The notes under the pieces: generated by a model | Seen by the model: only the letters and a program-made list of their open reading frames with translations | Databases searched by the model: none | What the model was told of the DNA's origin: nothing | Made by a program: the position numbers and the translations under genes | DNA from: an uncultured Candidatus Saccharibacteria bacterium | GTDB lineage: Bacteria; Patescibacteriota; Minisyncoccia; Phycocordibacterales; 2-02-FULL-43-11 | Direction of reading: 5' to 3' | DNA: 64,000 nucleotides | NCBI GenBank assembly: GCA_964348785.1 | Contig: CAYGDO010000002.1 | Location: forward strand, 2,238-66,237 | In this document: piece by piece, positions 1,324 to 63,773 of the stretch | Layout of the letters: each line of letters starts with the position of its first letter | Numbering within the stretch: the first letter of the stretch is position 1

Positions 1324-2357
1324 AGATTAAATTCAAAAAAGAAGATTTTTATAAATGTTTCGAATTTCCGGTGAAGTATTACCTTGATGAGACTAAATCT
1401 AAATCAAACAGAACCACCGGACAACAGAGAGGACTAGGCTCTATCATAAATGATTTTTTCCTAGGAAAACTAATTGAGATAGGAGTGGCAAGAGCTATTG
1501 AAGAGAGAAGTAATAATAAAAAAATACACTTGGATTTTGATATACATGAATCGGGCGAGAATCACGATAACGATCCTGATATTGTGAAAGTAACAGAATC
1601 GGGAAAAGATCGCGAGCCTAAGTTATATCTTGAAATAAAAAATGTTTCTGAAAATGACAGATTTATAGGCCTTACTTCTGAACAATGCTCTACTATGCTC
1701 GGTAGCAGAATTATTTCAAACGATTCCTCGAGGCTATTCATTGTATACGGAACAGTTTCTTCATCTGATAAATCAAAAATATGTGATGTGTTTGGCGCAT
1801 ATTTGAAATCAGAAATAAAAGATGATCTTTTAGATGGGTTTGCAGATATAGCCGATATTTATCTTGAAATTAAAAGTGTCATAAATACGAAAGAGCTTAC
1901 CGAAAATTGTTTGAAGTTTGATAAAGGGTCGCTGTTTTATGAGACTGAAATATTGGGGCCAGAAATAACTGAGACAAAGGCTAACAAAATAAGAGCTTCA
2001 GAATATGAGACAAAAAATTTAAAGGATGAAGTCTTACCGATAATAATGATGAACAGCTATCCTGCTCCAAAAGAATTCGGCGAATTCAGACTTGAAGGAC
2101 AAACAACCTTATTTATAAAGATTAACGACAAATCAAAAAGAATTTATTTAGACTGCCATTCTAACGGATACATTGAGAATAAATCTCTCGGAAGATTCGA
2201 TCTAAAAAACGGAAAAATGTATGAACTTTTCTTCACAACCATAGGGCGAAATCCTGTTTTAAGCAGAAACAACTTGTGGATCGCCCGGCGGAATGTAAAT
2301 AACATTATCCCAGATACTGTCGAACAGCGAATCGAGTATATAGCAAAAAATATTTAA
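1320..2357 (+). CDS. Putative type II-like restriction endonuclease (PD-(D/E)xK superfamily)
   Basis: Motif NDPDIVKV...(16 aa)...KLYLEIKNV = PD-x(n)-ExK; 3' end overlaps 4 nt convergently with the C5-MTase gene, a common R-M arrangement. Confidence 0.45.
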   Translation: MKIKFKKEDFYKCFEFPVKYYLDETKSKSNRTTGQQRGLGSIINDFFLGKLIEIGVARAIEERSNNKKIHLDFDIHESGENHDNDPDIVKVTESGKDREPKLYLEIKNVSENDRFIGLTSEQCSTMLGSRIISNDSSRLFIVYGTVSSSDKSKICDVFGAYLKSEIKDDLLDGFADIADIYLEIKSVINTKELTENCLKFDKGSLFYETEILGPEITETKANKIRASEYETKNLKDEVLPIIMMNSYPAPKEFGEFRLEGQTTLFIKINDKSKRIYLDCHSNGYIENKSLGRFDLKNGKMYELFFTTIGRNPVLSRNNLWIARRNVNNIIPDTVEQRIEYIAKNI

Positions 2358-3934
2358 GAATTCATTGCTCTCATCATTTGTTTTGCCACAGCTTCAATCA
2401 CTGGAACGCTAACAGAATTTCCAGCTTGTTTGTATAAGGCCGAATCAGAAATTGTGGGCAAAATATAGTCTTTTGGAAAACCTTGAATTCTAAAACATTC
2501 TAAAGGAGTCAATTTTCTTATTCCTTTTTTATCTTTAATTATTGGCACGTTATGTCCGCCCATTCCCATGTTTGCAGTCAGAGTAGGGCATACACTACTT
2601 TTATTTTCTCTAACGTATTGTCTACGCCATTGATAAACTTTTCCTTCTTCTTTTATAAAATTTTTCAATTTTTCAAACAAAGGTTTACCATTGTAATAAT
2701 ATTTTTCTGGAACATTTTTTTCTAATAAATCAGTAATTTTTGTATTCAATTTGATTGGACTAGGAAACTCAAATCTGTCTGAGTATGACTTATTTCTAAA
2801 GCCTACAATATAGATTCTCTCTCTATTTTGAGGAACATTTCCATATTCCATAGTATTTAAAACCTTAATTTTTACATAATAACCGAGGTCTTTTAAGGCC
2901 TCTTCAATAATCCTAAAAGTTTTTCCTCCATCGTGACTCTTTAGATTTTTTACATTCTCCAAAAGAAAACCCTCAGGCTTTCTAGCTTCTAAAATTCGAG
3001 CAATATCAAAAAACAAATTTCCTCTACCTTTTTCATCATTGAATCCTTGTCTGTATCCTGCGATAGAAAAAGCCTGACAAGGAAAACCTCCCAAAATAAA
3101 ATCGAATTTTGGTAAATCATCGATTCCAATCTTTCTAATATCTTCTACTACCAATTTAGAATCCTTAAAATTTAAATCATAAGTTTCTTTACATTTTTGA
3201 TCAAAATCATTTGCAAAAACTGTTTTAAATCCAGCCCTTTCAAAACCTATACGAATACCTCCAATACCAGCAAATAAATCTAAGGTACGAAAACCATGTT
3301 TATTCTTTTTTTGTTTTTCCTCTTGCGGAACATTTTTTATATTACTTATTACTTGAACGACAACTCCTCTAATTTCAACATCTGTCCTAAATAAAGGGCT
3401 CATATTTGGATTTCTAGGTTCCAATCTGATTCTATTTTTTTCGTAATAAAGTCTTTTCAAAGTTGCCTCATTGTCATCAATAATAGCGACGACGGTCTGA
3501 CCGTTTTCTGCAACAGATTGTTTTTTGATAACAACAATATCACCATCAAATATTCCGTCATCAATCATGCTCTCACCAACAACTCGTAAAGCGTAATAAC
3601 CATTTGAATTTTTTATACTAGGGTTTACTATAGAAATAGTATCCTCATGATTTTCGATTACTTCTATAGGCTGTCCGGCAGCAATTCTTCCTAAAACAGG
3701 AATCTCAATGATTGATTTAATTTCTTTCATCGGAGAAAGGCCTCTGACTGAATTTTCCGACCGAGAAAGAAAGCCCTTGTTTTTTAAAGAAGAAATATGT
3801 TCATGCACAGTGGACACAGCCCTAAGTTTTAATTGTTTTTTTATTTCTTCAAAAGTGGGGGATATGCCATTTTCAGAAAAATAACTGTTAACAAAATCAA
3901 ATACTTGTTTTTGTTTTTTTGTTAAATTAGACAT
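2354..3934 (-). CDS. LexA-like repressor (wHTH + S24 peptidase) fused to DNA (cytosine-5)-methyltransferase (Dcm family)
   Basis: N-terminal 200 aa collinear with LexA: MSNLTKKQKQVFDF...HTH, cleavage site RIAAGQP (Ala-Gly), catalytic Ser in VVGESMIDDG and Lys in EATLKRL; C-terminal 320 aa has C5-MTase motifs I FAGIGG, IV GFPCQAFS, VI ENV, VIII QNRERIYIVG, X GNSVSVPV; single uninterrupted 526-aa ORF. Confidence 0.85.
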   Translation of the reverse strand: MSNLTKKQKQVFDFVNSYFSENGISPTFEEIKKQLKLRAVSTVHEHISSLKNKGFLSRSENSVRGLSPMKEIKSIIEIPVLGRIAAGQPIEVIENHEDTISIVNPSIKNSNGYYALRVVGESMIDDGIFDGDIVVIKKQSVAENGQTVVAIIDDNEATLKRLYYEKNRIRLEPRNPNMSPLFRTDVEIRGVVVQVISNIKNVPQEEKQKKNKHGFRTLDLFAGIGGIRIGFERAGFKTVFANDFDQKCKETYDLNFKDSKLVVEDIRKIGIDDLPKFDFILGGFPCQAFSIAGYRQGFNDEKGRGNLFFDIARILEARKPEGFLLENVKNLKSHDGGKTFRIIEEALKDLGYYVKIKVLNTMEYGNVPQNRERIYIVGFRNKSYSDRFEFPSPIKLNTKITDLLEKNVPEKYYYNGKPLFEKLKNFIKEEGKVYQWRRQYVRENKSSVCPTLTANMGMGGHNVPIIKDKKGIRKLTPLECFRIQGFPKDYILPTISDSALYKQAGNSVSVPVIEAVAKQMMRAMNS

Positions 3935-40105: not shown

Positions 40106-40831
40106 ATGAAGACGAAACTGTTCTTTGCGATACTTTGGTTCAGCATTCAAAACGCTTTCAGTTGGACGTGGCCCGAAGTCAGTATTCGGTCCATGTACGG
40201 TAGCCAATTTCTCGATCCCGGGACCGGTTACGTCATTTATGACAAACCGGTAGTCCAGAGCGATCTGGAAATCGGAATTCCGTTTGGTTTCAGGGTGAAT
40301 GTCCTCAACTCCAAAAGCCTCAATGGAGGATGGGGCGAAACGCTCGGCGACGAAATGGACTACACGCTGGGCTGGAGAGGTGCGATCATCAAGAATTTCG
40401 GTTTGGACGTGTCTGTCACGTTTCTTGACGAATTACATCTTTTCCAAATGGGGGAAGACGACATCTTCTACAGCAGGTTCCATCTCTCGTACACCCATAA
40501 TGAATGGCGGTTTTCAGGAATTTGGGAGAACTATACCACTTTCTCCAGTGGTCACCTCACAGGAGGGGATTTGGTCGGACTTGGTGTTGAGCGAGAGTTC
40601 GCCCTTGTAGGCGAGTGGCTAATCCTCGAAGCAGAAACGGCCACCCTCTACAACGCGGGGGCCCTTCATCGGGAGGGTTTTTTTCAGAGGGGAATGATCA
40701 ATCTGGGATGGGAAATTTCTAAAGGGCTCACAATAATTGCCCCCAGAGTGGACTTCTATGTTCCGTTCGAAAATCATCACCACAAAAGGAACGACGCTGT
40801 GGTGTTCATGGGACTGAAGTATCGGTTCTGA
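40106..40831 (+). CDS. GC-rich secreted protein with beta-barrel-like C-terminus (ends GLKYRF)
   Basis: Signal-peptide-like N-terminus, aromatic-rich alternating pattern, terminal Phe typical of OM beta-barrels; GC content well above flanks. Confidence 0.5.
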   Translation: MKTKLFFAILWFSIQNAFSWTWPEVSIRSMYGSQFLDPGTGYVIYDKPVVQSDLEIGIPFGFRVNVLNSKSLNGGWGETLGDEMDYTLGWRGAIIKNFGLDVSVTFLDELHLFQMGEDDIFYSRFHLSYTHNEWRFSGIWENYTTFSSGHLTGGDLVGLGVEREFALVGEWLILEAETATLYNAGALHREGFFQRGMINLGWEISKGLTIIAPRVDFYVPFENHHHKRNDAVVFMGLKYRF

Positions 40832-42026: not shown

Positions 42027-42344
42027 CTATTTATTAAATTTTTTTTCAATAAATCGCGCAAAAGAATTGTCGGGAGAACAACCAGCATATACCTTAGTCC
42101 ATCCAAAACCAACAATAGGGATACCGCCATAAGATTTACACTCCTCTTCAGAGTATGTTTTTTTATAAAAAACATACGTGCCTCCGTTATCTGGACAAAC
42201 ATCACCAAAACATACAGTTTTAATTTTGTATGGATTTATTATATAGGCCAATAAAAGTATTAAAATAATAGAAAATAAAATTTTTAAAAATTTTTTCATA
42301 AAGGGAATTATAGCATTTAAGAAGGGGAGTCGGGGGGGGTTCAA
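42027..42344 (-). CDS. Small secreted Cys-rich protein (likely starts at internal MKKFLKIL)
   Basis: Signal/TM then CFGDVCPDNGG...CKSYGG...GCSPDN. Confidence 0.35.
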   Translation of the reverse strand: MNPPRLPFLNAIIPFMKKFLKILFSIILILLLAYIINPYKIKTVCFGDVCPDNGGTYVFYKKTYSEEECKSYGGIPIVGFGWTKVYAGCSPDNSFARFIEKKFNK

Positions 42345-42650
42345 ATCCCATTAGGGTCTAAAAATTACAAAACAAAAACAGAGCATCCACTCTGTTTTTG
42401 GTAATTTGTGACCCTAATGGGAATTTTGAAACTTACAGTTTCAGTACACCTTTCCCATTTGCTTATAATAAGAATTACTCGCAAATAAGGGAGAAGGTTT
42501 TCAAATCCCATACGCAAGTGAATCAATTCACTTGCTTAGGGTCATTAATAAAAATGGCTTTGGAAAAAACCAAAGCTAATTTTTATACTAATGACCCTAA
42601 TTAGTGAAAATTGGAATCTACTTTTAAAGCAAATGAAAGTTTTTAAAGTC

Positions 42651-42992
42651 TTATTTAGTTAAGTATATATATGAGTAGAAAAGTATAAAAAACATTACAA
42701 AATATATAAGTGCATACAAACCATATATCTTGTGAGGGGTATATGCCACTTTCTTAGCTTCAAGATAGTCTTCTTGATGTTTTTTATCAAAATATTCAAG
42801 AATTAAAGAAATTGTAAGTCCAAAAGTTATTATTATCCAAAACCACAAATTCTCGTTACCTCCAAACGATTTAGCAAAAACATCTGGAGAAAAAGACAAC
42901 AACAAGAACGTGTTAACAAAAATAAGGCTGACTATTAATATAATTTTAATTTTTCTACGCACGGATGATAACAGCAATAAGATTAACCACAT
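42651..42992 (-). CDS. Small multi-TM membrane protein
   Basis: Hydrophobic ORF; overlaps next ORF by 38 nt in a different frame. Confidence 0.3.
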   Translation of the reverse strand: MWLILLLLSSVRRKIKIILIVSLIFVNTFLLLSFSPDVFAKSFGGNENLWFWIIITFGLTISLILEYFDKKHQEDYLEAKKVAYTPHKIYGLYALIYFVMFFILFYSYIYLTK

Positions 42993-43221
42993 TCAAAATA
43001 ACAGAGATTATTCCCAATGTCATACCTGCCATTCCTAATGCCCTAGAACCTCCTTTTCTGGCCTGGAATCCAAATACAGTAGCTATTATTGCCGCTATCA
43101 ATCCGACTACTATCAACAAAGAAGGAGATAATTTAATATACAAAATCTTTGACCAAACCCAAGGAAAAAAGAATATGGTCGAAATAATAATACTTAAAAT
43201 GCCTTTCCATGACGCTTTCAT
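42955..43221 (-). CDS. Small multi-TM membrane protein
   Basis: Hydrophobic ORF within tRNA-Glu-adjacent repeat region. Confidence 0.3.
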   Translation of the reverse strand: MKASWKGILSIIISTIFFFPWVWSKILYIKLSPSLLIVVGLIAAIIATVFGFQARKGGSRALGMAGMTLGIISVILNVVNLIAVIIRA

Positions 43222-43875
43222 AATTTGTTCAGTCAGTTTTATTAATAATATTTATTATAACACTATAGATAATATTTTATTCTTAATAAGGTTTATACCC
43301 CTAATGGGATTTTCCTTCGACTCTCAGCTAGCCGTCGCTCGAAACAGTCACATTCGCTCTGCTAAGCTCAGTACTTCCTCGCTCTCGCTTGGTCGCTAGG
43401 CACCGACTCGCTTGTTTTTTCTGCTGAAAAAACATAGCTCCGTCGTTCAAATCCCATACGCAAAGCGAGCAGTCGCTTTGCTTAGGGTCATTAATAAAAA
43501 TGGCATAACTAATGGGAATTTTGCCCGCGACTAAAACTTTTTCGTCAAAAAGTTTTGTCTGGGCACCGACTCGCGCTTCGCCGAAACGGCTCAATGCGCT
43601 CCGTCGTTCAAATCCCATTAGGATCTAAAAATTACAAAACAAAAACAGAGCATCCACTCTGTTTTTGGTAATTTGTGACCCTAATAGAAACAGGGACTTG
43701 GTCACAAATCATTTTGTGCCGTCGCACAAAATGTTCGCGACCCCAGCTCAGCATTTTGCGAAACGTAAAATATGCCTGCGCTTTTCAAATCCCATATGCA
43801 AAGCGAGCAGTCGCTTTGCTTAGGGTCATTAATAAAAATGGCTTTGGAAAAAACCAAAGCTCATTTTTATACTAA

Positions 43876-43950
43876 TGACCCTAATGGGATTTGAACCCAT
43901 GTTACCGGATTGAAAATCCGATGTCCTAGACCAGGCTAGACGATAGGGCC
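43876..43950 (-). tRNA. tRNA-Glu (anticodon UUC)
   Basis: Minus strand GGCCCTA-TC-GTCT-AGCCTGGTCTA-GGAC-A-TCGGA-TTTTCAA-TCCGG-TAAC-ATGGG-TTCAAAT-CCCAT-TAGGGTC-A folds as cloverleaf; collinear with E. coli tRNA-Glu. Confidence 0.85.
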
Positions 43951-44084
43951 AGCACCATAATTATAGCAAATTATCAATAACCAATTTTCAAATTTTCATT
44001 GAAATTGCTAAAAGCTAGTGGCTAATAGCTAGGCGCTAGTATATACCATTTTTATGAAAAAAGGCAAAAAAAATCCCCAAGAGA

Positions 44085-60772: not shown

Positions 60773-60846
60773 GCATCCTTAGCTCAGTTGGTTAGAGCGT
60801 GCGATTCACATTCGCAAGGTCGGAGGTTCGAATCCTCCAGGGTGCA
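60773..60846 (+). tRNA. tRNA-Val (anticodon CAC)
   Basis: GCATCCT-TA-GCTC-AGTTGGTTA-GAGC-G-TGCGA-TTCACAT-TCGCA-AGGTC-GGAGG-TTCGAAT-CCTCC-AGGGTGC-A cloverleaf. Confidence 0.85.
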
Positions 60847-61150
60847 CTAGCAACCTAACAAGCAATCTGCATTGCTTGTGTGGAGGATTCGAAAAGGTTC
60901 TCCCATATCGAGTCCGCGAGATGGGAAACCTGTACTGACCCTGTAAGGGTCGATCCCTACAGGATGCATCAGACTGAACAAGCAAACGATTTTGCTTGTG
61001 TTAGGGATCGAAGACCTTTTGAGCCTAAAATTGATTTTAAGAAAATTTTAGCCAAAAGGTGTACTGAAACTGTAAGTTTCGATATCCCTCCATTCCATGG
61101 TGCACCAGACTGAGCAAGCAAACGTCCGCCAGCTGGCGGATTGATTGCTT
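60847..61150. repeat. tRNA-Val-downstream repeat array (hairpins NcaagcaaN..ttgcttgNg, T-arm-like fragments, repeated cagactga(a/g)caagcaaacg)
   Basis: Three related hairpin units; segment ggattcgaaaaggttctcccatatcgagtccgcgagatgggaaac is homologous to the element inserted in tRNA-Pro (63641-63753). Confidence 0.45.
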
Positions 61151-61192
61151 TAAATATCTTTTATACAATAGCAACATAATTTAAATAAAAAT

Positions 61193-61552
61193 ATGTTCAA
61201 AAAATTAACAGAATTTTCATACAAAAGAAACTGGAAAGAAGCGGTTGGATTTTATCTATCATATTTACTTATGGGCCTCATTTTAGGTTTTATTGCTGGT
61301 GCATTATTTGGAATAATCATGCCTAATAGAAATTTAAGCGAGGGTCTAAAAATTGGAGTGATCGTTGGCGCAATATATACTTTAATAATTTCTTCTATCG
61401 TATTAGTACAAAGAAAACTGTACAAAAATTTCGGATGGATCATCTTAACTTTGTTAAGCGTCATCTTAACAATTTTTGGTGGTGCGATACTTGGATTAAT
61501 AATACCAGCTTTTATGACCACCAGAGGAATCGGAACAGAAAGTTTGAAATAG
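61193..61552 (+). CDS. Small multi-TM membrane protein
   Basis: Three hydrophobic helices; no family assigned. Confidence 0.4.
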   Translation: MFKKLTEFSYKRNWKEAVGFYLSYLLMGLILGFIAGALFGIIMPNRNLSEGLKIGVIVGAIYTLIISSIVLVQRKLYKNFGWIILTLLSVILTIFGGAILGLIIPAFMTTRGIGTESLK

Positions 61553-61574
61553 TGGCTAATTATTTCCGTTTTCA

Positions 61575-61622
61575 ACTATATATAAATCATTGACTAAAAT
61601 GCTTTTTTGTGATATCATTAAA
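61575..61622 (+). promoter_or_regulatory. 48-bp direct repeat copy 1 carrying sigma70-like promoter (TTGACT-17-TGaTATCAT)
   Basis: ctatatataaatcattgactaaaatgcttttttgtgatatcattaaaa; 47/48 identical to copy at 62068. Confidence 0.5.
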
Positions 61623-61723
61623 AAAGAATCCCTACTCGTATGGGTAGGTGGCTCACCAGGAGCAACGGGGCAATATTTCCCGCCTCGCACAAGGGAAATG
61701 GAAATGCAAATTGAACAGGTCGT

Positions 61724-61984
61724 ATGACCAACACACAGCAGTACCGGATCGTCGGAGGGCCGTCTCGTGAGGAACTTTTCGACGCCCTACGTCTTCGGCA
61801 TGAAGGAAGAAAGGTTTCCTTCAACGGACAGCCCACACGGACGTTTGAAGTGTCCGTAGACAACATTGGCGTCGAAGACGGAAGTGGGCACAGATGGTTG
61901 CTGTGCCTCTCAAACCCGTCAGGCTTTTTCGAAGGGTACTTCGATACCGCCAAACGGGAAGGGGTTCTGAGGCCGAAGAACTAG
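61724..61984 (+). CDS. GC-rich small protein (86 aa) in cassette 1
   Basis: Downstream of promoter repeat with ~95-nt structured leader; plausible globular sequence QYRIVGGPSREELFDALRLRHEGRKVSF...; followed by hairpin + T-run. Confidence 0.4.
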   Translation: MTNTQQYRIVGGPSREELFDALRLRHEGRKVSFNGQPTRTFEVSVDNIGVEDGSGHRWLLCLSNPSGFFEGYFDTAKREGVLRPKN

Positions 61985-62067
61985 ACATTCCACCGGCAAC
62001 ACGGGGCGCTTCACTCTCACGAGTGGTGCGTCCTTTTTCTTTTCTGTTTTATTTTATGATTTTTTAC

Positions 62068-62115
62068 TATATATAAATCATTGACTAAAATCCTTTTTTG
62101 TGATATCATTAAAAC
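62068..62115 (+). promoter_or_regulatory. 48-bp direct repeat copy 2 carrying the same promoter
   Basis: ctatatataaatcattgactaaaatccttttttgtgatatcattaaaa; followed by ~95-nt leader with 10-bp stem ttgcctgtag...ctacaggcaa. Confidence 0.5.
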
Positions 62116-62211
62116 TGGTTAGTTTTTTGTCATTTTGCCTGTAGAAATGGCACCCTTATACAAGGCAAAAGGGGTGTCAAACTACAGGCAAACATCAAAT
62201 CTATATCGGCA

Positions 62212-62766
62212 ATGAAAAATACGCTGGCATTGGTAATGGCAGTATTAGTCTGGACGTCTTCGTCCTTCGGGCAAGTTTTTGAACTCAAGCTCGAAGATAG
62301 TCAGGGAGGATTGTACACTCTCAATGATACAATCTCAAGGATGGAAATCGTCCCCGGAACCCCGCCCAACGAACTTCAATTTATCACGATGGGAACGCTC
62401 CAGTTGAAATTCTCATCAGCCTTTTCCGGACCGACCCTTCAAAAAGACGTAATGTACGAAGGCGTGCTCTCTGGAGGAGACCCGGGGTGGTGGACGCCAT
62501 ACATACAGTTAAATGAGCCGTGGGACTTCATGGTCTCAAAATTTGCGGGTCAACCCGTAACATTCTGGTTCGACGAATTGTCCCTCGACGACGTGCATAC
62601 GTCGATCGTGGTGGCTGAATTTTTTGCAATAAAATCAGAGACCGAGTGGCTACGCGGGAACCTCCAATACGGCGTCAGTGCCGTCCCCGAACCCGAAACC
62701 TATGCACTCGGAGTCGGGATCGGCCTCATCGCCTTCGGCGTCGTGCGACGCCGTTTCAAGAAGTAG
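62212..62766 (+). CDS. GC-rich secreted protein with PEP-CTERM sorting signal
   Basis: Signal peptide MKNTLALVMAVLVWTSSSFGQ; C-terminus VPEPETYALGVGIGLIAFGVVRRRFKK = PEP motif + TM helix + Arg cluster. Confidence 0.6.
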   Translation: MKNTLALVMAVLVWTSSSFGQVFELKLEDSQGGLYTLNDTISRMEIVPGTPPNELQFITMGTLQLKFSSAFSGPTLQKDVMYEGVLSGGDPGWWTPYIQLNEPWDFMVSKFAGQPVTFWFDELSLDDVHTSIVVAEFFAIKSETEWLRGNLQYGVSAVPEPETYALGVGIGLIAFGVVRRRFKK

Positions 62767-62862
62767 ACGGTATTGTACGTCATTCGCACACGACGTACGC
62801 AGGGGGAAGGATTCACATCCGACCCCTTTTTTATTTTCAAACAATAGACTAAAATCATAAAA

Positions 62863-63540
62863 ATGCTTGCTAAGATAAAAAATAATATTTTCCCCATTAT
62901 CTATTTACTGTGGTTAATTTTTACCGTTCTTATTACCTTCAGTGTTAGCAAATTGAGTAATGACAACATTACCCATATAGTAATACTGATTATTCTGGTC
63001 TTATCTCTTTTTGCCTTTAAATTATTTAAACCTAAAAATCCTAAACGATTTTTTATCATTTCCTCTGTCATCTTGGCAACATTGTGCGAAGGGGCATATA
63101 TGATCAGCAAACCGGTACGCGAATCCCTTATAATCACAAAAAATTCAACTTTCATTGAATTTATACAAAATTATGCAATTGATTTGACCTTTACTGTACC
63201 AGCATATATTTTAATCTTTTTTGTCATTTGGAAACTTATTAATAAATATAACTACTCAACTTTTGAATACATTTTCTTGATGGCATTTGGACAAGCACTT
63301 GGGGATGGAAACGCATTTTTCTTTGCCAATCCTTTTATGTTGGTATTTATCCCATACATAATGCTAAATTATCACGCAATGAATATATTTCCTTATTTAA
63401 AAATCAGAGACTTTCTTAAAGATATTCCAAAAAGTAACTCCAAATGGAAATACCCGGTAACTGTTCTTTCATTGTTCGTAACTTACATTTTTGCTGGAGG
63501 TATAATACACATTGTCGCCAAAACTATCGGTTTGGAATAG
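62863..63540 (+). CDS. Polytopic membrane protein, hypothetical
   Basis: 6 predicted TM segments; no family assigned. Confidence 0.45.
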   Translation: MLAKIKNNIFPIIYLLWLIFTVLITFSVSKLSNDNITHIVILIILVLSLFAFKLFKPKNPKRFFIISSVILATLCEGAYMISKPVRESLIITKNSTFIEFIQNYAIDLTFTVPAYILIFFVIWKLINKYNYSTFEYIFLMAFGQALGDGNAFFFANPFMLVFIPYIMLNYHAMNIFPYLKIRDFLKDIPKSNSKWKYPVTVLSLFVTYIFAGGIIHIVAKTIGLE

Positions 63541-63568
63541 AATAAAAACTTCTAATATTGATAAATAA

Positions 63569-63639
63569 CGGGGCGTAATATAGTGGTCGTATACACCCTT
63601 CGGGAGGGTGAGGCCCGAGTTCGATTCTCGGCGCCCCGA
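63569..63639 (+). tRNA. tRNA-Pro (anticodon CGG)
   Basis: CGGGGCG-TA-ATAT-AGTGGTC-GTAT-A-CACCC-TTCGGGA-GGGTG-AGGC-CCGAG-TTCGATT-CTCGG-CGCCCCG-A cloverleaf, U33, G37. Confidence 0.8.
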
Positions 63640-63640
63640 A

Positions 63641-63773
63641 TGAACGAAGTGAGTGAAGAGGGCGAGCGAGCAAACTGCTTTGCTCGCGTCCAGAATCGAA
63701 AGGTTTTTCCTTATCGAGTCTGCGAGATGGAAAAACATCTGGCTACGTGGTAGCCGATTCTCGGCGCCCCGAA
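63641..63773 (+). repeat. 113-bp element inserted after tRNA-Pro plus 19-bp direct duplication of tRNA-Pro 3' end (CGATTCTCGGCGCCCCGAA at 63622-63640 and 63755-63773)
   Basis: Perfect 19-bp direct repeat; intervening sequence homologous to tRNA-Val-downstream repeats (hairpin gagcgagcaaa-ctgc-tttgctcgc; ...gaatcgaaaggtttttccttatcgagtctgcgagatggaaaaac). Confidence 0.55.

Follow-up and report, generated by a model that had tools for sequence, protein, structure and literature searches.

The 64,000-nucleotide (nt) stretch analysed here, called the window throughout, comes from an uncultured Candidatus Saccharibacteria bacterium (GenBank assembly GCA_964348785.1, contig CAYGDO010000002.1). Its three tRNA genes, identified with ARAGORN as Glu (minus strand), Val and Pro (both plus strand), are all followed by copies of a family of short structured units, which are probably small insertion elements, both non-coding and non-autonomous, with a specificity for tRNA and tmRNA 3' ends. 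An earlier note on this DNA had described a 19-nt duplication of the tRNA-Pro end, a core shared between tRNA-Val and tRNA-Pro and an array behind tRNA-Val, and all the sequence features that it described are present in the window. What it did not report is that at all three tRNAs the T-loop, the 3' strand of the T-stem and the 3' strand of the acceptor stem recur downstream as a reverse complement; the second core type and the broad occurrence of the family had also escaped it. The note had proposed either tiny insertion elements that target tRNA 3' ends or the eroded remains of integrative elements. The first proposal agrees with an empty tRNA-Pro site lacking 133 nt, with tRNA-Val genes followed by 0, 1 or 2.5 units and with the presence of units behind at least 18 tRNA isotypes; the second does not fit a single compact, covarying architecture with no linked integrase remnants. 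The note's view that tRNA genes are systematically decorated is true for three of the three tRNAs of the window. The insertion polymorphism, the unit boundaries and architecture, the covariation, the strand bias and the absence of a linked recombinase are direct observations. No prior description of the units was found in full-text literature searches, and the family is unannotated, with no Rfam entry.

The units share a plan built on the tRNA 3' end

We designate the sense copies of the tRNA end S, the antisense copies A, and the conserved hairpin that splits A hp. The order at a locus is S0 - (spacer or terminator) - hp/A - core - S1 - hp/A - core - S2, and so on, with units of about 120-170 nt, all non-coding. 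In the type I plan, the 5' part consists of an acceptor-5'-like segment, hp, GT, the T-stem complement plus ATCGAA, P1 and the junction GTACTGA, and the 3' part of P2 (NNCT-GTA-AGNN), TCGA, an optional small hairpin P3 or 'AT', and the 3' strands of T-stem and acceptor. The point at which hp splits A is the junction of T-stem and acceptor. At least two core types exist; the type II core, built on the same scaffold, reads CGGAGC-hairpin-GCGAGGC-GGGGTCGCGA-hairpin-CTTGTGACC and has the signature CGGAGC..GGGGTCGCGA..TGTGACC. Two unpaired stretches, GTACTGA and the CTGTAAG loop, are kept.

Antisense pairing is evident at each locus of the window. At tRNA-Val, TTCGAATCCTCCA (60827-60839) pairs 13/13 with TGGAGGATTCGAA (60881-60893); at tRNA-Pro, 63620-63634 pairs with 63686-63700 at 13 of 15 positions; and at tRNA-Glu, TTCAAATCCCATTAGGGTCA is followed by TGACCCTAa-hairpin-atATGGGATTTGAA (43784-43828, minus strand; A0), a 20-nt reverse complement split by the hairpin. 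Among all tRNAs of the loci compared, an antisense 12-mer of the tRNA's own T-loop and T-stem (at most 2 mismatches) lies within 300 nt downstream of 87 of 142 tRNAs, against 4 of 128 in the upstream control. The same core is found behind many tRNA isotypes, with A re-matched to each tRNA. A differs from S0, the functional tRNA end, by 0.95 mismatches per 13 positions, and it is closer to S0 than to S1 in 25 units and closer to S1 in none, with 16 ties. The S0-A spacer is a canonical bidirectional terminator in about 40 of the 50 parsed units, its A-run and T-run extending the S0:A palindrome; a GAACGAAGTGA loop replaces the terminator in the Pro unit of the window and in a few others. Terminator-like hairpins also lie 3' of several units.

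Other accounts of this plan were considered and rejected. The A copy is not a primer-binding site, since it has no TGG to pair with CCA unless the CCA is gene-encoded, and so fits the gene and not the mature tRNA. Typical units are not simple tRNA duplicates with an insert in the T-loop, because A is an exact reverse complement even for non-palindromic T-loops (ATTTGAA, ACTTGAA) and for tRNAs with G-U pairs. Nor is an acceptor stem closed with S1 a conserved feature, since S1 is often reduced to the T-loop and the T-stem 3' strand, without the acceptor part.

Variants with a fuller pseudo-tRNA scaffold (D-arm, anticodon-stem remnants, hairpin insertions) and the type I core in the T-arm occur in L020, L037 and L085 (labels L001 to L152 denote the individual contigs or loci compared with the window); in L020 the pseudo-copy lies 5' of an intact tRNA. 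Units with P3 (e.g. L061, L065, L090) contain as many as three copies of the motif RGUGUACUSA: one at the apex of P1, another within the junction GGTGTACTGA and a third within P3 AAGYGTAMTCRCGG. P2 with its flanks resembles an anticodon arm (5 bp, 7-nt loop CUGUAAG). Judged by sequence, either RGUGUACUSA or the anticodon-arm-like P2 could be a protein-binding site.

Filled and empty sites in related genomes

tRNA-Pro(CGG) occupies 63569-63639 (plus strand; ARAGORN; Rfam 57.8 bits), with S0 at 63620-63639. As the earlier note had claimed, CGATTCTCGGCGCCCCGAA occurs twice, at 63622-63640 in tRNA-Pro and at 63755-63773. The Pro unit (insert plus repeat, 63640-63773, plus strand) scores 28.5 bits (E 2e-6) with the covariance model R1 described below and comprises the GAACGAAGTGA loop (63642-63652), hp (63666-63687), A (GTCCAGAATCGAA, 63688-63700), P1 (63701-63736), a variant P2 (63742-63754) and S1, which is the second copy of the 19-nt repeat (63755-63773).

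Syntenic loci were reached through homologues of the RNase_T-like gene 3' of tRNA-Pro. The gene order in the relatives is L9, L27, an unnamed open reading frame (ORF), DUF454, tRNA-Val, a variable stretch, tRNA-Pro, RNase_T and a methyltransferase. In L136-L139 (85% protein identity) tRNA-Pro is identical to that of the window, with TAAAAGGTATAAT and the RNase_T-like gene directly behind it; the gene begins 19 nt after the tRNA (...CCCCGAATAAAAGGTATAATTGAAGAATG). This is an empty site, of the kind that the earlier note had suggested looking for in relatives. In the window the same flank, with the same promoter and gene, follows S1, with exactly 133 extra bases bounded by the 19-nt repeat. L132/L134 carry a homologous filled tRNA-Pro unit and an extra 217-amino-acid (aa) ORF, and L140 retains a degenerate remnant of 47 nt. 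A synteny search with the S41 peptidase in species genomes gave 3 distant loci, without tRNAs.

The number of units at tRNA-Val varies as well, from none in L136 and L132 to one in L137-L139 and L140 and 2.5 in the window. Between L136, without a unit, and L137/L138, with one, identity is 99.8% over a stretch of 4971 nt that begins exactly at the T-loop. The S1 of the L138 unit (TCGATCCCTACAAGGCGCA) and its flank equal the 3' end of a different tRNA-Val allele in L136, which identifies S1 as the displaced resident tRNA end and S0, hp, A and core as incoming.

Fold, covariation and strand

Single units fold with z-scores of -6 to -10. An alignment made with MAFFT from units with and without P3 misaligned their 3' ends, and the seed was therefore restricted to units with P3. 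With a hand-specified structure, the 17 seed sequences had 87.8% paired cells compared to 69% in shuffles, and 31 pairs showed double changes. The covariance model R1 was built from metagenome copies only, and it recovers the Val, Pro and Glu units of the window (five with E<0.01); since it was trained on metagenome copies alone, this places the window sequences in the family. R1 found 130 copies in 0.55 Mb of loci. In 129 distinct aligned copies, 89% of cells were paired, compared to 62% in shuffles and 35-45% with the partners slid, figures that the model-fitted alignment inflates somewhat, and compensatory changes affected 43 of the 46 pairs in that alignment. P2 pairing read straight from the pattern matches was Watson-Crick in 224 of 226 cases.

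In 48 of 57 units (p ~1e-8) the tRNA-sense (plus) strand has the more stable fold of the two strands, and in hp G-U outnumbers A-C 33:1; the tRNA-sense strand is thus the folding strand. This bias and the branches (hp, the P3/AT bulge) are present in the units, and from sequence alone they cannot separate RNA from single-stranded DNA. Known RNA families, ribozymes and riboswitches were rejected as identities for the units, because Rfam 15 (ribozymes, GOLLD, ROOL, YrlA and T-box included) gave no match on them at the gathering threshold or at E<=10 in the window and 17 loci; it matched only tRNA, tmRNA, rRNA and group I intron.

Distribution of the family

A pattern made of the junction and P2 of the type I core (SSTGTACTGANNCTGTAAGNNTC) matches at least 120 metagenome stretches and none of 2.9 million viral contigs. 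Among the matches listed, 81 of 124 occurrences have a same-strand tRNA upstream, mostly ending 100-140 nt before the motif, and these tRNAs belong to at least 18 isotypes. In L047 (216-787) a tmRNA gene precedes a full type I unit, whose antisense part fits the unusual T-loop of the tmRNA (TCCGATT). Two units lie behind tRNA 3' halves that follow group I introns. The introns lie just 5' of these halves (L025, 1645-1886; L026, 9839-10101), and since ARAGORN calls no tRNA there, the two tRNA genes appear to be interrupted. Type I cores without a tRNA (L031, 5294-5364; L068, ~470-620; L077, 943-1067) have no tRNA-derived arms and are closed by unrelated short helices (e.g. TCGCAAGACC...TCGCG).

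P1 subtypes are common to different tRNAs in contigs that are otherwise unalignable at the DNA level. P1 of the second Val unit, for example, shares 98% identity with its counterpart in the unit that L033 carries behind tRNA-Arg, and L033 is a contig in which nothing outside the unit can be aligned to the window. Four contigs that also carry pyrG have a type I unit behind tRNA-Gln(CTG); their proteins are 56-66% identical, and the P1 subtypes differ at this syntenic locus. By these sequence comparisons, the core subtypes appear to behave as mobile. The family is common in the Patescibacteria (Candidate Phyla Radiation, CPR).

A scan of viral contigs with the GC-rich type II motif gave mostly chance matches, with 1 of 120 genuine. 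The genuine one is a type II array (L152, 2840-3319, minus strand) near the end of an IMG/VR contig of 50% GC with host-like genes (CysE, GalE, cytidine deaminase), and the family may thus extend beyond AT-rich CPR genomes or mark a provirus boundary. In L032 (1-2600), tRNA-Glu and a copy of its 3' half, which begins in the anticodon loop, enclose a 2.1-kb ORF island, a classical integrative-element signature; type I and type II units lie beside partial copies there.

The arrays of the window

BLAST of the arrays against the whole window confined their copies to the three tRNA loci. tRNA-Val(CAC) lies at 60773-60847 (plus strand; ARAGORN; Rfam 70.8 bits), and its S0, comprising the T-loop and the 3' strands of T-stem and acceptor, at 60827-60847. 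The array behind it, on the same strand, reaches ~61150, as the earlier note had described, and is made of two full units and a third hairpin. The first unit (60850-60968; R1 60.1 bits, E 1e-17, filters off) consists of the acceptor-5'-like GCAACCT (60850-60856), hp (60859-60878), A0 (60881-60893, antisense to S0), P1 (60894-60931), GTACTGA (60932-60938), P2 (60939-60949) and S1 (TCGATCCCTACAGGATGCA, 60950-60968). The second unit (60969-61104; R1 73.6 bits) consists of hp (60979-60998), A1 (TTAGGGATCGAA, 61001-61012), P1 (61013-61060), GTACTGA (61061-61067), P2 (61068-61078) and S2 (61079-61104), a diverged, older tRNA-Val 3' end; its A1 is complementary to S1 and not to tRNA-Val itself. The partial third unit (61105-61150) is a spacer and a long hp-like hairpin with the palindrome TCCGCCAGCTGGCGGA.

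The core that the earlier note had recognized as shared between tRNA-Val and tRNA-Pro extends over 36 nt (60893-60928 and 63699-63734) with 86% identity, and the 18 nt at the centre of this core, ATCGAGTCYGCGAGATGG, have exactly two occurrences in the window and none in 100 shuffles. The hairpin-plus-left module is present in 3 copies, at 60857, 60977 and 63665. No terminator separates tRNA and unit at the Val and Pro loci.

The Glu array (42340-43874, minus strand) follows tRNA-Glu(TTC) (43875-43951; S0 at 43876-43895) and starts with a terminator hairpin. Its first unit (43681-43823; R1 18 bits) has a type II core with GGGGTCGCGA at 43735-43744, and S1 ends at 43676. It is succeeded by A1 (43607-43622), a core and S2 (43509-43517), and by A2 (43446-43490), a core and S3 (~43299-43309), these second and third cores being related to type II. 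S4 (42592-42600), a fifth unit of type I (42408-42545; R1 99 bits) and a final A (42340-42355) complete the array, all on the minus strand. Two small membrane-protein ORFs (42651-43221, minus strand) lie between partial tRNA-end copies that share the direct repeat TTAGGG; the arrangement suggests, as read from the sequence, that a gene-bearing segment was inserted by a crossover within the acceptor 3' strand.

How the units might move, and alternative explanations

We infer that a trans-acting enzyme recognizes the fold of the tRNA-sense strand (S:A, hp and core), either as folded single-stranded DNA or as a transcript. The incoming block would bring a replacement copy of the tRNA from the T-loop to the 3' end (S0), often with its own terminator hairpin; the reverse-complement copy A, split by hp at the T-stem/acceptor junction; a structured core, either type I (P1, GTACTGA, P2 with the CTGTAAG loop) or type II; and a T-loop-like TCGA end. 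Recombination with the resident gene at the T-loop would leave the resident T-loop-to-3'-end downstream as S1, which would make the '19-bp duplication' a target copy. Repeated events would stack units with the newest beside the tRNA, and each A would then match the S copy on its left. In a more specific form, which we hold only as a tentative possibility, the units would represent a new kind of mobile DNA with a folded-single-strand attachment site, in which A:S pairing rebuilds a duplex image of the tRNA 3' end and an enzyme acting in trans recombines it with the matching tRNA; in a variant, a transcript would guide the recombination. If the folded-strand form were true, the target would be written into the element itself, and this would suit bacteria that take up single-stranded DNA by competence.

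Several observations weigh against insertion elements. The window holds no integrase, transposase or reverse transcriptase; none of these is enriched near units, and across 120 loci each ORF cluster recurs in 6 at most. The Pfam families matched by at least 2 of the 150 nearest ORFs include no integrase family and are mostly housekeeping. Our loci were picked through the type I motif and are a biased sample, pair counts on a model-fitted alignment lean toward the structure of the model, and a few type I cores stand apart from any tRNA. An intrinsic terminator precedes most units, so that their transcription is hypothetical. The filled and empty tRNA-Val alleles differ also in the whole tRNA body and in the upstream gene tail, so that at this locus allele replacement by homologous recombination fits as well as site-specific insertion. 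Finally, the strong conservation of the cores and the tRNA-Gln(CTG) units of the four pyrG contigs fit a selected RNA function.

That last point leads to a rather unlikely alternative, in which the units are functional structured RNAs, either 3' trailers or small RNA genes borrowing the acceptor and T-stem, maintained by selection and gained or lost by duplication and deletion without transposition. The strong covariation, the G-U bias and the greater stability of the tRNA-sense strand would all be expected of an RNA, as would the conserved unpaired GTACTGA and CTGTAAG nucleotides, the type I units kept behind tRNA-Gln(CTG) in contigs whose proteins are so diverged, the terminator-like hairpins that follow several of the units and, at the Val and Pro loci of the window, the missing terminator between tRNA and unit. 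However, about 40 of 50 parsed units stand behind a canonical tRNA terminator, only about half of the tRNAs have a unit, empty and filled alleles coexist within a 99.8%-identical population, degenerate remnants exist (L140), and the syntenic tRNA-Gln locus bears differing P1 subtypes, whereas contigs unalignable at the DNA level have P1 subtypes in common. The two readings are compatible, since an element that moves can make an RNA as well, and RNA function and spread as a tRNA trailer could coexist with mobility. It is also unlikely that no dedicated machinery exists and that packages of tRNA and trailer spread by natural transformation and homologous or microhomology recombination, with the tRNA or upstream gene as the left anchor, the T-loop-like TCGA of the trailer as the right anchor, and the resident 3' end remaining behind. 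The L137/L138 and L136 comparison speaks for such packages, as the tail of the upstream gene and the entire tRNA body lie within the replaced segment, and the sequences become identical again at the T-loop with a microhomology of just 'AGG'; so do the absence of a linked recombinase and the GGTTCGAATCC-like T-loops shared by most tRNAs seen here. Packages would leave unexplained the conservation and covariation of A, hp and the cores, the presence of the same core at many isotypes with a re-matched A, and the exact 133-nt insertion at an otherwise identical tRNA-Pro.

Very improbable is an origin by erosion from large islands or prophages that had an integrase and made use of several tRNAs. 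The L032 island bounded by a tRNA-Glu 3' half, the ORFs flanked by TTAGGG in the Glu array and the one type II array on an IMG/VR contig are what it can draw on, but more than 130 copies have one compact architecture with intact pairing, no integrase fragments lie nearby, the type I motif is absent from the 2.9 million viral contigs, and random erosion would not repeatedly leave the same 130-nt structure. Short-read (Logan/JGI) contigs L001, L003/L004, L010, L011 and L137 do end inside the Val and Glu arrays, and the start of L137, at the contig end, joins unit sequence to the tail of the DUF454 gene, probably as a repeat-induced chimera. These breaks would favour an assembly artefact, which the earlier note had raised as the case against its own duplication. 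Nevertheless, the spacing at tRNA-Pro is identical in two independent Logan assemblies (ERR3094302, ERR3094292), which argues against it; NCBI and JGI assemblies of relatives also contain a homologous unit, and the family recurs in more than 100 independent contigs, leaving the artefact a negligible probability.

The units matter for several reasons. CPR bacteria account for much of bacterial diversity, and little is understood of the ways in which their small genomes acquire and shed DNA. The family adorns about half of the sampled tRNA genes, in a sample biased toward carrying loci; it records serial replacement at tRNA loci and sits at the edges of variable gene islands. An element that holds its own target in sense and in antisense form provides a simple and testable means of programming the choice of site, and the conserved cores point to a putative protein partner. 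In practice, the units break short-read assemblies at tRNA genes, and partial copies of tRNA ends could confuse the annotation of tRNAs and att sites.

Other genes of the window

An AT-rich piece of a bacterial chromosome (~34% GC), the window carries housekeeping genes, and by protein its nearest relatives are Parcubacteria/Patescibacteria: its peptidase has a Ca. Portnoybacteria homologue at 44%, and the RNase_T-like protein 3' of tRNA-Pro has homologues named Ca. Taylorbacteria at 58-64%. The gene content between tRNA-Val and tRNA-Pro varies among relatives (L132, L136, L140), and the interval thus behaves as a variable island. In the window it contains two GC-rich cassettes (61569-62830), with an 86-aa ORF (61724-61984) and a 184-aa ORF with a PEP-CTERM-like tail (62212-62766). 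Each cassette is preceded by a 55-nt promoter-like repeat (61569-61623 and 62060-62114; 95% identical; TTGACT-17-TATCAT). Elsewhere, a 526-aa ORF (2354-3934, minus strand) unusually fuses a LexA DNA-binding domain, Peptidase_S24 and a C-5 cytosine DNA methylase. A GC-rich (0.45) 241-aa ORF (40106-40831), preceded by an AT-rich promoter-like stretch, has a signal-peptide-like start and the C-terminal ...YRF found in outer-membrane beta-barrels; a Pfam search with it gave no match, and it looks foreign to the host genome.

Comparison with known systems

As with the units, the GOLLD and ROOL RNAs are structured, have no known function and often adjoin tRNA genes. They are, however, large, whereas the units are much smaller, have no Rfam match and are built from the tRNA's own 3' end. 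Transposable elements of the miniature inverted-repeat kind (MITEs), palindrome-associated transposable elements (PATEs) and the Rickettsia palindromic elements resemble the units in being short, non-coding, structured and multi-copy, with inverted repeats around a core (here A and S) and no internal transposase. In contrast to MITEs and PATEs, the inverted repeats of the units are target-derived and locus-specific, and the target copy is at least 19 nt, compared to none or a few bp. MITEs have a related autonomous element; no autonomous transposase element sharing the ends of the units was seen in the 120 loci, and the conservation of the units across very divergent genomes is stronger than usual for MITEs. 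The length of the target copy also sets the units apart from PATEs of the IS200/IS605 type, which insert 3' of a short fixed motif without duplicating the target and have TnpA (Y1) as partner; a Y1 transposase family was not seen among the 150 nearest ORFs.

The attC sites of integrons, which form arrays as the units do, may also be alike in fold, being imperfect inverted repeats that on one strand make a duplex with extra-helical features. The attP of CTX-phi, one of the integrative mobile elements exploiting Xer (IMEX), is likewise a folded single strand, a further possible likeness to the units. Unlike these systems, the units have no R''/R' core (RYYYAAC ... GTTRRRY) with L boxes, no dif/XerCD site and no IntI with attI at one end of the array; an IntI-like ORF was found neither in the window nor among the 150 nearest ORFs. 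Moreover, the arms of the units are the tRNA's own T-loop, T-stem and acceptor and change with each tRNA, the arrays start at the tRNA gene, and most of the 'cassettes' have no gene. Comparative methods are known to pick up attC-type DNA motifs as 'structured RNAs' (Weinberg 2017).

Elements of the tyrosine-integrase type that target tRNA genes are flanked on each side by the 3' part of the tRNA in direct repeat, which the units show (19 nt at Pro, S0/S1/S2 at Val, the S copies at Glu), and have in relatives an empty site with an uninterrupted flank, as seen at tRNA-Pro in L136-L139; the integrase expected in or beside such elements was found neither in the window nor among the families matched by at least 2 of the 150 nearest ORFs. 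Comparable in genomic behaviour are miniature derivatives of tRNA-integrating elements, namely cis-mobilizable elements (CIMEs) and the tandem partial-tRNA arrays beside tycheposons, the latter described for Prochlorococcus islands as integrating at the tRNA 3' end and pushing older ones outward, with partial tRNAs in the variable island. Insertion at tRNA 3' ends, flanking direct repeats, outward stacking and scattered partial tRNAs are common to both. The units differ in having no integrase in cis or nearby and in measuring only 120-170 nt, and they carry what those elements do not: an inverted copy of the target, split by a hairpin, and a covarying core, at 18 or more tRNA isotypes.

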